Source: Thermoanaerobaculia bacterium
GTDB lineage: Bacteria > Acidobacteriota > Thermoanaerobaculia > Multivoradales > Multivoraceae
Direction: 5' to 3'
DNA length: 64,000 nt
NCBI GenBank assembly: GCA_965116145.1
Contig: OZ220482.1
Span: 1,916,143 to 1,980,142 of the forward strand
How positions within the stretch are numbered: position 1 is the first letter of the stretch; every line of letters begins with the position of its first letter. Positions 53,766 to 59,924 of the stretch are shown here, one piece after another. The notes beneath the pieces are model-generated. The model saw nothing but the letters and a program-made list of their open reading frames with translations, ran no database searches and had not been told where the DNA came from. Made by a program: the position numbers and the translations under genes.

Positions 53766-54371
53766 ATGAGAGTCCCGCGGGCGGGACGGCTGATCTGCGC
53801 ACTCGGCCTGTCGAGCGTTCTGGGCTGCGGCGCACTTGCAGCCCAGCCTCCGCGTGAAGCGGCCGGCCGGTACGCCGCTGCCGCCATCGTCGGGCTCGCG
53901 GCGGTGCGCGAGGGTCCGGTGGTTCTGGTCAGTTTCCGGCTGGACCACGCGCTCGACGAACGCACGTGGGAAAAGATCGAGAGCGGGCTGCCGACCGGCT
54001 TCACCTACGACATCGAGGTCCGGCGGGCCAGACGGAACTGGTTCGACCGGACCGTCGCCGCCACGCGCCTGCAGGTTGTAGCGATGTACAACGCCCTGAC
54101 CCGGGACTACCGGGTCAGCTTCAAGCGCGACGGCGAGCTCTACGCCAGCCGCGTCGTGACCTCACCGGAGGACCTGGAACAGGCGTTGACCTCATTCGAC
54201 GGGTTGTCGGCCGTCGAGCTCGAAAACGAGGAACCCGGGCCGTTGATCGTGCGGGTGCGCGCCGAGCTGCGAACCCGGACCCGCCTCGGTCTGATCCCGG
54301 ACCGGGTCCACACCGCCTGGGCGCACACCGGACCCATCCGGCGTCGGGCCGGGAGCGGAGAGGCAAGGTGA
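53766..54371 (+). CDS. DUF4390-family periplasmic protein (signal peptide)
   Basis: Signal MRVPRAGRLICALGLSSVLGCGALAAQ. 201 aa. Positioned directly upstream of, and translationally coupled to, the ntrY-like kinase, as in rsmB-DUF4390-ntrYX loci recalled from other bacteria. Confidence 0.55.
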   Translation: MRVPRAGRLICALGLSSVLGCGALAAQPPREAAGRYAAAAIVGLAAVREGPVVLVSFRLDHALDERTWEKIESGLPTGFTYDIEVRRARRNWFDRTVAATRLQVVAMYNALTRDYRVSFKRDGELYASRVVTSPEDLEQALTSFDGLSAVELENEEPGPLIVRVRAELRTRTRLGLIPDRVHTAWAHTGPIRRRAGSGEAR

Positions 54372-58005: not shown

Positions 58006-59924
58006 GCGCAACCGCCGCCAGCCGTTTCGTCGTCGGCACGGCCGGCCACGTCGACCACGGCAAGACGCGGCTGGTCGAGGCCCTGACCGGAGTCGACTGC
58101 GACCGCTGGGAAGAGGAGAAGCAGCGCGGCATAACGATCGACCTCGGCTTCGCTTCGACGATCGAGGACGGCTGGCAGATCGGCTTCGTCGATGTGCCCG
58201 GACACGAGAGGTTCGTCCACAACGCGCTCGCCGGGCTCGGCGGTATCCAGATGATGATGATGGTCGTCGCCGCCGACGAAGGCGTCATGCCCCAGACCCG
58301 GGAACACCTCGCGATCTGCTCCCTGCTCCGGATTCCGGCCGGCCTCGCCGTCCTCTCCAAGACAGACCTCGTGCCCGCCGATCTCGCGGAGCTGGCCGCG
58401 CTGGAACTCGAGGAGACGCTCGCGGAAACTCCGTTCGCCGGCGCGCCGATCCTGCCGGTGTCGGCCCGGACCGGGGAGGGCCTCGGGCGGCTTCGCGCCG
58501 CCCTGCTCGACCTCGCCCGATCGGCCAGTCCGATCGACCGCCAGCGCCGCCTGCCCGCGCGGCTGCCGATCGACCGCGCCTTCCACCTGCGCGGCCTCGG
58601 AGTGCTGGTCACCGGAACGCTCGCCCGGGGAACGGTCAGCGTCGGCGACGAACTTGCCGTCCTGCCCGCGGACCGCCCGGCCCGGGTACGCAGCATCGAG
58701 GTCCACGGCGACCGCCGGCAGCAGGCGGAGGCCGGCGAGCGGACTTCGGTTCAGCTCGTCGGCGTCGACCTCGAACAGGTCGCCCGCGGCCACGAGCTGG
58801 CCGCGCCCGGCGTCTACCGCGCCACGAACTCGCTGCTCGTCCGCTGCCGGCTGCTTGCCGACGCTCCGGAACCGCTTCAGGGAAGCTGTGCCGTGCGAGT
58901 CCACGTCAACGCCGCGCAACGCATCGGCAAGCTGCGTGCGCTCGACAGCGAACGTCTGGCGCCGGGAGACGAGGCGCTGGCGGAGATCCGGCTGGACGAG
59001 CCGCTGGTGACGATCCGGGGCGACCGCTTCGTCATCCGCAGGCCCTCGCCCCAGACCACGCTCGGAGGCGGCGAGGTGCTCGACCCGGCCTGGAGACGCC
59101 CCCGGAGGCAGAGTCTCGGAAACGCCCTCCGGGCGCTCGCCGCCAGCGACCGGCAGACGGCGGCCATCCAGTGGGCCGCCGACGGCCGAGAGGCCGGGCT
59201 CGCGGTCGGCGAACTCGGACTGCGGCTGGGCGTGGCCCCCGCCGATGCAGAGGACCTTCTGAACGGCGCCGAACGCGAGGGCCATCTGCTCAAGGCAGCC
59301 CCCCGACGCTACGTCATCGGGGCCGAAGTCCGCGGCGTGGTCCGCCGCGCCCGCCGCCTGGTCGAGGCGCACTTCGCCGCCGATCGCCTGTCCCGCGGCA
59401 TGCCGAAGGCCGAGCTCGTCCGGCGGCTGCTCGACACCCGCGCCGCCGACCTGGCGCCCGCCTACCTGGACTGGGCGAGCCGCGGCAGCAGCAACGAAGC
59501 GATCGCGATCGAGGGCGACCTCGCGACCCTGCCCGACCGCACCAGCGAACTGACCGGAGCCGAGTCGAAGCTCGCCCGGGACATCGTCCAGGGCTTCGAG
59601 CGCCAGGGCCTGACCCCGAACTCACCCGAGGACCTCTGCCGCACCCTGAACGCCAAGCCGCAACTGTTCGACGGTGTGCTCCGGTACCTCGTCGACCGCG
59701 GCCAGATCGTCCGGCTTCCCGGCGGCCTGCTCGTCGCCGCCGTCTCCCTGGAGCGCCTCCAGGCCGACCTGCAGGCGACCGGCTGGGACACGTTCACCGT
59801 CGCCGACTTCAAGGACCGCTTCGGACTGACCCGCAAGTGGGCGATCCCGCTGCTGGAGTACACGGACCGGCAGCGTCTGACCCGGCGGGAGGGAGACCGA
59901 CGGCGGGTGCTGCGGCCGCCATAG
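58002..59924 (+). CDS. selB: selenocysteine-specific translation elongation factor
   Basis: VVGTAGHVDHGKTRLVEALTGVDCDRWEEEKQRGITIDLGFA, DVPGHERF, EF-Tu-like domains II/III, about 260-aa C-terminal winged-helix extension. 640 aa. GTG overlaps ntrX stop (GTGA). Confidence 0.8.
   Translation: MSATAASRFVVGTAGHVDHGKTRLVEALTGVDCDRWEEEKQRGITIDLGFASTIEDGWQIGFVDVPGHERFVHNALAGLGGIQMMMMVVAADEGVMPQTREHLAICSLLRIPAGLAVLSKTDLVPADLAELAALELEETLAETPFAGAPILPVSARTGEGLGRLRAALLDLARSASPIDRQRRLPARLPIDRAFHLRGLGVLVTGTLARGTVSVGDELAVLPADRPARVRSIEVHGDRRQQAEAGERTSVQLVGVDLEQVARGHELAAPGVYRATNSLLVRCRLLADAPEPLQGSCAVRVHVNAAQRIGKLRALDSERLAPGDEALAEIRLDEPLVTIRGDRFVIRRPSPQTTLGGGEVLDPAWRRPRRQSLGNALRALAASDRQTAAIQWAADGREAGLAVGELGLRLGVAPADAEDLLNGAEREGHLLKAAPRRYVIGAEVRGVVRRARRLVEAHFAADRLSRGMPKAELVRRLLDTRAADLAPAYLDWASRGSSNEAIAIEGDLATLPDRTSELTGAESKLARDIVQGFERQGLTPNSPEDLCRTLNAKPQLFDGVLRYLVDRGQIVRLPGGLLVAAVSLERLQADLQATGWDTFTVADFKDRFGLTRKWAIPLLEYTDRQRLTRREGDRRRVLRPP

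Follow-up and report, generated by a model that had tools for sequence, protein, structure and literature searches.

The selB gene behind an NtrY-like sensor system in Holophagales-like Acidobacteriota: a probable read-through passenger in a block headed by lpxC and a conserved predicted sigma-54 promoter

We analyzed a 64-kb stretch of contig OZ220482.1 (here called the window; approximately 70% G+C) in which selB, encoding the selenocysteine-specific elongation factor, is the terminal member of a string of four plus-strand genes that also specify a DUF4390 protein, an NtrY-like sensor histidine kinase, and a sigma-54-activating response regulator (Table 1). An earlier note on this DNA had described the four genes as chained by 4-nucleotide (nt) overlaps, with selB last, and had proposed that the NtrYX signal sets SelB stoichiometry. 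Direct reading confirmed the architecture: the junctions are GTGA (54368-54371), ATGA (56641-56644), and GTGA (58002-58005), and at all three the start codon of the next open reading frame (ORF) overlaps the TGA stop codon of the preceding one. The regulatory proposal is not borne out by gene order. The comparisons described below suggest that selB is probably a read-through passenger of the sensor genes, owing its position to inherited gene order and compaction and not to placement for tuning by the sensor.

By its domain content and conservation, the 640-amino-acid (aa) product of the last gene is a functional SelB. It scores 367 bits against the NCBIfam equivalog TIGR00475 (cutoff, 242.25), and Pfam recognizes GTP_EFTU (108 bits), GTP_EFTU_D2 (39 bits), Beta-barrel_SelB (62 bits), and, at residues 597-635, SelB-wing_3 (61 bits; cutoff, 23.2), the winged helix that binds the selenocysteine insertion sequence (SECIS). 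The AGHVDHGKT and DVPGHE motifs are readable, the best-matching solved structures are full-length Aquifex and Escherichia coli SelB (4zu9 and 5lzb), and the nearest homologues are labeled Holophagales or Acidobacteriota bacterium. The GTG at 58002 is the earliest start codon in the frame and, because no other ATG, GTG, or TTG precedes the G1 motif, the only possible start of selB. The ratio of nonsynonymous to synonymous substitution rates (dN/dS) relative to related genomes is low (0.25 to 0.37, similar to that of lpxC), and the C-terminal winged-helix residues are invariant across ten SelB orthologues, which together argue for a working gene under purifying selection. The profile search thus disposes of the case that the earlier note had itself raised against its identification, an EF-Tu paralogue without a SECIS-binding domain. 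It might still be supposed that the protein is an EF-Tu/SelB paralogue which has given up its role in selenocysteine (Sec) insertion, as could happen after loss of selA, selC, and selD from the genome, since neither the 64-kb window nor, in five relatives, the DNA up to 10 kb from selB revealed another Sec or selenoprotein gene. However, Sec genes are often scattered (of approximately 87 loci, only 16 encode SelA no more than 10 kb from selB), and the presence of SelB is taken to mark the Sec trait (PMC1273633). Set against a score above the curated equivalog cutoff, the winged helix, its invariant residues, and the lpxC-like dN/dS, this alternative is barely tenable.

The earlier note had also reported that no selA, selD, tRNA-Sec, or obvious selenoprotein gene lies within the window, and four checks agree with it, although a few stretches are unannotated and the absence is therefore not absolute. 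ARAGORN and Rfam searches of the window returned only tRNA-Leu, tRNA-Lys, and tRNA-Ala, with no tRNA-Sec and no SECIS family; tblastn of a SelA protein against the window gave no match; and Pfam scans of approximately 50 window ORFs found housekeeping families only, with no SelA, AIRS (the SelD family), or molybdopterin oxidoreductase. The same-frame TGA junctions lon/engB and rsbW/STAS were considered as Sec codons and rejected, each pair being separate genes.

The placement of selB was compared first within a close set consisting of the window and five contigs (L082, L083, L084, L095, and L096) with SelB proteins 66 to 81% identical. The block comprising a GAF-domain activator gene, uvrA, and smpB on the minus strand, followed by lpxC, the DUF4390 gene, the kinase gene, the regulator gene, and selB, is identical in all six of these Holophagales-like genomes, and its recurrence in five related genomes argues that the gene order is not due to chance. 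Profiling of the ntrX-selB linkage, as the earlier note had suggested, thus upheld the adjacency (six of six genomes) but not the overlap, which is present in only two: the spacing between the regulator gene and selB is -4 nt in the window and L095, +10 nt in L084 and L096, +19 nt in L083, and +70 nt in L082. The linkage was seen in no other phylum of the sample, no window-type regulator gene being found directly before selB outside the Holophagales-like clade. In the sister class Thermoanaerobaculia (SelB 51 to 58% identical), yqeY precedes selB in all six loci. Only L005 among them has the full block, with yqeY sitting between the regulator gene and selB; in L001 and L002, the kinase gene and yqeY-selB are approximately 8 kb apart, with other genes in between. 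A perfect TATAAT lies 6 to 8 nt before the yqeY ATG in L001, L002, L005, and L097, whose genomes are approximately 70% G+C; it overlaps the regulator stop codon in L005 and is also present at loci where yqeY starts a divergent pair. This box suggests that yqeY-selB is a unit of its own in Thermoanaerobaculia, probably with a leaderless transcript.

In a sample of 71 selB loci drawn from many phyla, the neighboring gene upstream on the same strand encodes SelA in 12, YqeY in 6, and a window-type regulator in 5, and the remaining neighbors are almost all different; those checked include MetG (Met-tRNA synthetase), an ABC transporter, an M18 peptidase, OMP decarboxylase, and FtsJ. The window gene shares its SelB family and domain order with the classical selA-selB(-selC) operons, often found beside fdhA (PMC1794560), but it is not beside selA, selC, selD, or any selenoprotein gene, and even selA is the immediate upstream neighbor in only the 12 loci just mentioned. 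For selenoprotein biology the locus is mostly a caution: because selB sits behind many different genes across lineages, its tight overlap with the regulator gene does not show shared function.

The frequency of such overlaps in the window points the same way. Nine adjacent same-strand gene pairs have a 4-nt NTGA overlap, among them smpB/uvrA, obg/nadD-like, fmt/rsmB, and phosphoesterase/M16 peptidase, so that overlaps of this kind are routine packing in this genome. The smpB/uvrA overlap (51852-51855) serves as an internal control; it is kept in all five close relatives although the functions of the two genes are unrelated, so that such overlaps here do not imply a common function.

The identities that the earlier note had given to the three genes before selB were upheld, except that “NtrX-type” proved a loose description of the regulator. 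The first gene, directly upstream of the kinase gene and overlapping it by 4 nt, encodes a 201-aa protein in which a hydrophobic N-terminal stretch, LICALGLSSVLGCGALAA, is visible on direct reading; as judged from its sequence, this DUF4390 protein is homologous to the third, PlrP-type component of NtrYX-family systems, described in Bordetella (PMC13001219). Three of five relatives retain the GTGA overlap between the DUF4390 and kinase genes; in the other two, the genes are 1 nt apart. The N-terminal 320 residues of the kinase contain hydrophobic segments on direct reading and match no Pfam family, and no NtrY-specific model is among the 25 NCBIfam matches shown for the search; the cytoplasmic HAMP, PAS, HisKA, and HATPase_c domains are all found, in an NtrY/PlrS-like order (Table 1). 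The regulator gene lies directly downstream of the kinase gene. Its best NCBIfam model is NtrX (NF051870), at 483 bits under a 600-bit cutoff, a score nearly equaled by those against AtoC (449 bits) and NtrC (444 bits), and among solved structures Brucella NtrX (5m7n; 374 bits) matches best, with Aquifex NtrC4 close behind (351 bits). The receiver aspartate is found in LLDIWLP, and the GAFTGA loop is intact at residues 216-221; alphaproteobacterial NtrX proteins are without this loop (bioRxiv 10.1101/2023.06.06.543975). We regard the regulator as an ordinary sigma-54 activator whose partner is an NtrY-like kinase.

The closest known arrangement is the Bordetella cluster rsmB-plrP(DUF4390)-plrS-plrR-trkA-trkH, in which plrP/plrS and plrR/trkA overlap by 4 bp each (PMC13001219). 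As in that cluster, a DUF4390 gene in the window is followed, through a 4-bp overlap, by a gene for an NtrY-like kinase and then by a regulator gene whose stop codon is overlapped by 4 bp by an unrelated gene. The passenger downstream is selB here and trkA there, and the gene upstream is lpxC here and rsmB there; rsmB directly precedes the DUF4390 gene in beta- and gammaproteobacteria (PMC13001219). In the window, fmt and rsmB lie on the minus strand at 6131-8625, 46 kb away from the DUF4390, kinase, and regulator genes, and lpxC precedes the DUF4390 gene instead. Unlike Bordetella, the host is acidobacterial, the survey in PMC13001219 having covered Proteobacteria only. For the Bordetella cluster, experiments ruled out a single operon and revealed internal promoters, a strong one lying in the 3' end of plrS (PMC13001219), whereas the internal promoters of the window are predicted.

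Two candidate promoters mark the window block. In the relatives, the lpxC orthologues encode proteins of 330 to 336 aa with the Pfam LpxC domain, and the spacer between smpB and lpxC is poorly conserved save for two blocks. One is a predicted sigma-54 -24/-12 element, invariant as TGGCACGAnnCnTGCT in the six Holophagales-like genomes and present as TGGCACCGACTCTGCA at the same place in L005. Its -12 GC stands only 15 to 19 nt ahead of the lpxC start, so that the lpxC leader would be very short, approximately 3 to 8 nt. An ATG at 52629 was rejected as the start of lpxC; it lies inside the promoter motif, is not conserved, and is absent in L082. The other block consists of two palindromes, both TGYGGY-N6-GCCACA in form, 21 to 22 bp apart and centered roughly 106 to 168 nt upstream of the predicted transcription start. 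A copy of palindrome 1 is found at the same position, 21 to 22 bp from palindrome 2, in all five Holophagales relatives, and among 84 loci the exact sequence TGTGGC-N6-GCCACA occurs only in the smpB-lpxC spacer, namely, that of L005, L082, and L084. Both blocks are conserved in seven genomes, and in terms of motifs their layout is the classic arrangement of an enhancer-dependent sigma-54 promoter. We relied only on this cross-genome-conserved site; sigma-54-like sites with two mismatches are no commoner in the window than expected by chance (17 found, 18.5 expected). The gene for sigma-54, rpoN, was not among the window ORFs scanned. Since the regulator of the string has GAFTGA and the neighboring GAF-domain activator has GGVATGV in its place, the string's own regulator most plausibly activates the predicted lpxC promoter.

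The second candidate is an extended -10-like box that forms the sole conserved block of the lpxC-DUF4390 spacer, reading TGGTAGTGT in four relatives and GGGTAGACT in L084 and standing 6 to 8 nt ahead of the DUF4390 ATG across genomes. No Shine-Dalgarno sequence precedes this ATG. The box fits a candidate internal promoter that would give a leaderless transcript of the sensor genes, as at yqeY in the sister class.

These observations are best explained by a model in which the lpxC-DUF4390-kinase-regulator-selB block, typical of Holophagales-like Acidobacteriota, has two promoters, one of the sigma-54 type before lpxC, activated by the regulator encoded three genes downstream, and one at the -10-like box before the DUF4390 gene, from which the sensor genes would be transcribed without a leader. 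The Holophagales line would have lost yqeY together with its TATAAT box, leaving selB to rely on transcription through the sensor genes. In the window genome, the spacer would then have shrunk to an overlap, with SelB translated by reinitiation at the regulator stop codon. SelB would be a low-level passenger whose amount may vary with expression of the sensor operon, with no sign that selection favored the arrangement to that end. Read-through transcription of selB is likely because yqeY and its box are absent and selB starts no more than 70 nt past the regulator gene, and in the window genome the 4-nt overlap, which leaves no room for a terminator, makes cotranscription and translational coupling of the regulator gene and selB likely.

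A functional link of the kind the earlier note proposed would go further, with lpxC to selB forming one sigma-54 operon and an envelope or redox signal, received through the DUF4390 protein and the kinase, setting the amount of SelB. The lack of terminator room at the overlap, the failure to find any terminator-like site inside the string, and the adjacency in six of six Holophagales-like genomes all count in favor of such a link, as do the conserved predicted sigma-54 promoter and enhancer-like sites 5.4 kb upstream in a string that encodes a GAFTGA activator. We nevertheless regard it as rather improbable. The overlap is not conserved, being present in two of the six related genomes; in Thermoanaerobaculia, selB follows yqeY with its own TATAAT and is usually apart from the sensor genes; the linkage occurs in no other sampled phylum, the upstream neighbor differing in most of the 71 loci; and no selenoprotein gene or other Sec gene lies nearby to hint at a shared regulon. 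Unrelated genes in the window share 4-nt overlaps, and plrR/trkA in Bordetella, with the same 4-bp overlap, is part of a cluster that is experimentally not one operon (PMC13001219). In addition, the conserved -10-like box before the DUF4390 gene suggests that the sensor genes and selB are independent of the sigma-54 promoter. That the whole lpxC-DUF4390-kinase-regulator-selB block of Holophagales-like Acidobacteriota is one sigma-54 operon switched on by its own regulator is very doubtful.

Several points weigh against the read-through passenger interpretation. First, all of the promoter assignments rest on motif conservation, and an lpxC leader of approximately 3 to 8 nt is unusual. Second, the adjacency of the regulator gene and selB survives in all six genomes despite heavily rearranged DNA 3' of selB, which selection for coexpression could explain as well as inertia does. 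Third, the wider sample, six close genomes and about 85 other loci, is small, and a scan of metagenomes with poor peptide patterns, yielding ten mostly irrelevant loci, adds almost nothing to it; among the genomes listed in a species-level scan, no relative is closer than 58%. Finally, the 3' end of the regulator gene might conceal a promoter from which selB is transcribed on its own, in which case the overlap is simply a matter of packing. The strong promoter in the 3' end of plrS in the homologous Bordetella cluster (PMC13001219) offers a precedent, and the 70-nt spacer of L082 contains a GGGAG ribosome-binding site of its own before selB. Yet a consensus scan of 52300-60300 found no sigma-70-like promoter and no terminator inside the string, although at 70% G+C this is weak evidence; none of the six Holophagales-like genomes has a TAnnnT box at a suitable distance before the selB start; and in several of them selB has no Shine-Dalgarno sequence and starts no more than 10 nt past the regulator stop codon, which fits coupled translation. 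By analogy with Bordetella such a promoter may exist, but we consider it unlikely and continue to favor read-through from the sensor genes.

The arrangement before lpxC invites comparison with the E. coli glnA-ntrB-ntrC (glnALG) operon, where the sigma-54 promoter glnAp2 is served by NtrC enhancer sites and a second, weaker promoter precedes the sensor genes. In both cases an enzyme gene is followed by genes for a kinase and a sigma-54-activating regulator, a -24/-12 promoter (predicted in the window) precedes the enzyme gene with paired palindromes about 100 to 170 nt upstream, and a second promoter, here a candidate, lies before the sensor genes. The enzyme, however, is LpxC (lipid A synthesis) and not glutamine synthetase, the palindrome is TGTGGC-N6-GCCACA and not the NtrC site, and the window cluster, known from sequence, also includes the putatively periplasmic DUF4390 component and selB. 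The NtrYX systems of alphaproteobacteria (Rhodobacter sphaeroides, Brucella, and Caulobacter) resemble the window system in that they supply its best NCBIfam model and solved structure and have a link to the envelope; they differ in the GAFTGA loop, which is present here, in the score of 483 bits against the 600-bit cutoff, and in the lack of a DUF4390 gene in Alphaproteobacteria. In an R. sphaeroides ntrYX mutant, lpxC transcripts increased 8.8-fold, an indirect effect (PMC7240162), and this rise upon loss of NtrYX makes a functional link between the sensor and lpxC plausible. In the window, by contrast, lpxC is immediately preceded by candidate binding sites.

SelB and the three-part DUF4390/NtrY/NtrX module are already known. 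What appears to be new is the occurrence of the module in Acidobacteriota, its joining to lpxC behind a conserved predicted sigma-54 promoter, and, in one order, selB as the terminal gene; in the open-access literature we found no paper describing linkage of lpxC or selB to the module. The useful lead therefore concerns the envelope, in that a DUF4390/NtrY-like/sigma-54 regulator system hitherto known from Proteobacteria lies beside lpxC in Acidobacteriota, accompanied in seven genomes by a conserved predicted sigma-54 promoter and paired palindromes. We consider this candidate promoter more interesting than the placement of selB.

Table 1. Positions of the genes and sequence elements discussed (window coordinates unless a contig is named)
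Feature	Position	Strand	Evidence or remark
Palindrome 1, TGCGGCTGGTACGCCACA	52494..52511	+	Candidate sigma-54 activator enhancer site; one mismatch to TGTGGC-N6-GCCACA
Palindrome 2, TGTGACACGGATGCCACA	52515..52532	+	Candidate enhancer site; ~120 nt upstream of predicted transcription start
Predicted sigma-54 -24/-12 element, TGGCACGATCCATGCT	52618..52633	+	GG-N10-GC; one mismatch to TGGCAC-N5-TTGCW
lpxC (UDP-3-O-acyl-GlcNAc deacetylase)	52647..53651	+	GTG start placed by N-terminal alignment with relatives
Extended -10-like box, TGCTAGGGT	53751..53759	+	Candidate internal promoter; 6 nt before DUF4390 ATG
DUF4390 protein gene	53766..54371	+	N-terminal hydrophobic segment; Pfam DUF4390, 64 bits (cutoff, 27)
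Sensor histidine kinase gene	54368..56644	+	Putative membrane segments, HAMP, PAS, HisKA (HEIKNPL box), HATPase_c, an NtrY/PlrS-like order; Pfam
Response regulator gene (sigma-54 activator)	56641..58005	+	Response_reg, Sigma54_activat, AAA_lid_14, HTH_8 (Fis-type helix-turn-helix)
selB (selenocysteine-specific elongation factor)	58002..59924	+	GTG start overlaps regulator TGA stop
GC-rich hairpin	59932..59958	.	Possible terminator without U tract; 8 nt past selB stop, between convergent selB and polA
polA	60057..62744	-	Convergent with selB
TATAAT box before yqeY	L001 9530-9545; L002 about 9520-9535; L005 9505-9520; L097 9497-9512		

Downstream of selB, the convergent polA gene reported in the earlier note is present; its orthologues in relatives carry the 5_3_exonuc and DNA_pol_A domains. 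The selB-polA spacer is only 132 nt long in the window (59925-60056). It contains a hairpin with a predicted 11-bp stem that the consensus terminator scan did not call, and the z-score of the whole spacer is only -1.5. In L082 (12088-21929), L083 (12039-17468), and L084 (12233-18316), variable islands lie 3' of selB, carrying genes for an SNF2 helicase, AAA_21/DUF4276, HicAB, HEPN/nucleotidyltransferase, reverse transcriptase, PIN, and Mrr-type nuclease proteins, and L084 is the one contig of the three in which polA is visible past the island. The selB 3' end is partially duplicated in L083 (15402-16161), and a polA fragment is present in L084 (15659-16030). Given these variable islands and partial copies, mobile or defense islands appear to integrate preferentially at the 3' end of selB. 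Near yqeY-selB in the sister class, a baeRF-family eRF1-like gene lies approximately 3 to 5 kb upstream in L001 (3823-5016) and L097 (5415-6608), with a znuABC(-fur) operon between; its proximity to the gene of a UGA-recoding factor may be a coincidence.

Upstream of the string, smpB, uvrA, and the GAF-domain activator gene occupy the opposite strand, lpxC then standing on the plus strand. The remaining window genes are of the housekeeping kind, namely, serA, moaC, the HU gene, rsmB, fmt, ftsK, ksgA, rho, engB, lon, clpX, and clpP, together with tig, obg, rplU, queA, gcvT, gcvH, pcm, and a partner-switching module. A 1,020-aa plus-strand ORF at 12350-15409 was rejected as a wrong-frame artifact; on the opposite strand, the sequence makes a plausible membrane protein. 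In the ksgA-rho interval (13109-15301, minus strand) there is a strong A-over-T skew, and the minus frame reads as a multipass membrane protein of approximately 700 aa, the frames first tried there having given no Pfam match. Between 36800 and 39100 the G+C content falls to about 0.64; an M23 peptidase ORF lies at 36913-37764, and ORFs 37748-39022 (plus strand), 38297-39301, 37604-38296, and 36817-37488 (all minus strand) have no Pfam match, as was the case for several other window ORF guesses. A second sigma-54-like element, TGGCAAGGCGCTTGCT, with one mismatch, is found on the minus strand at 47248-47263, just downstream of the GAF-domain activator gene and approximately 290 nt upstream of the partner-switching module, which encodes an RsbW-like kinase, a STAS protein, and a GAF-SpoIIE phosphatase and runs from 46959 down to 44441.

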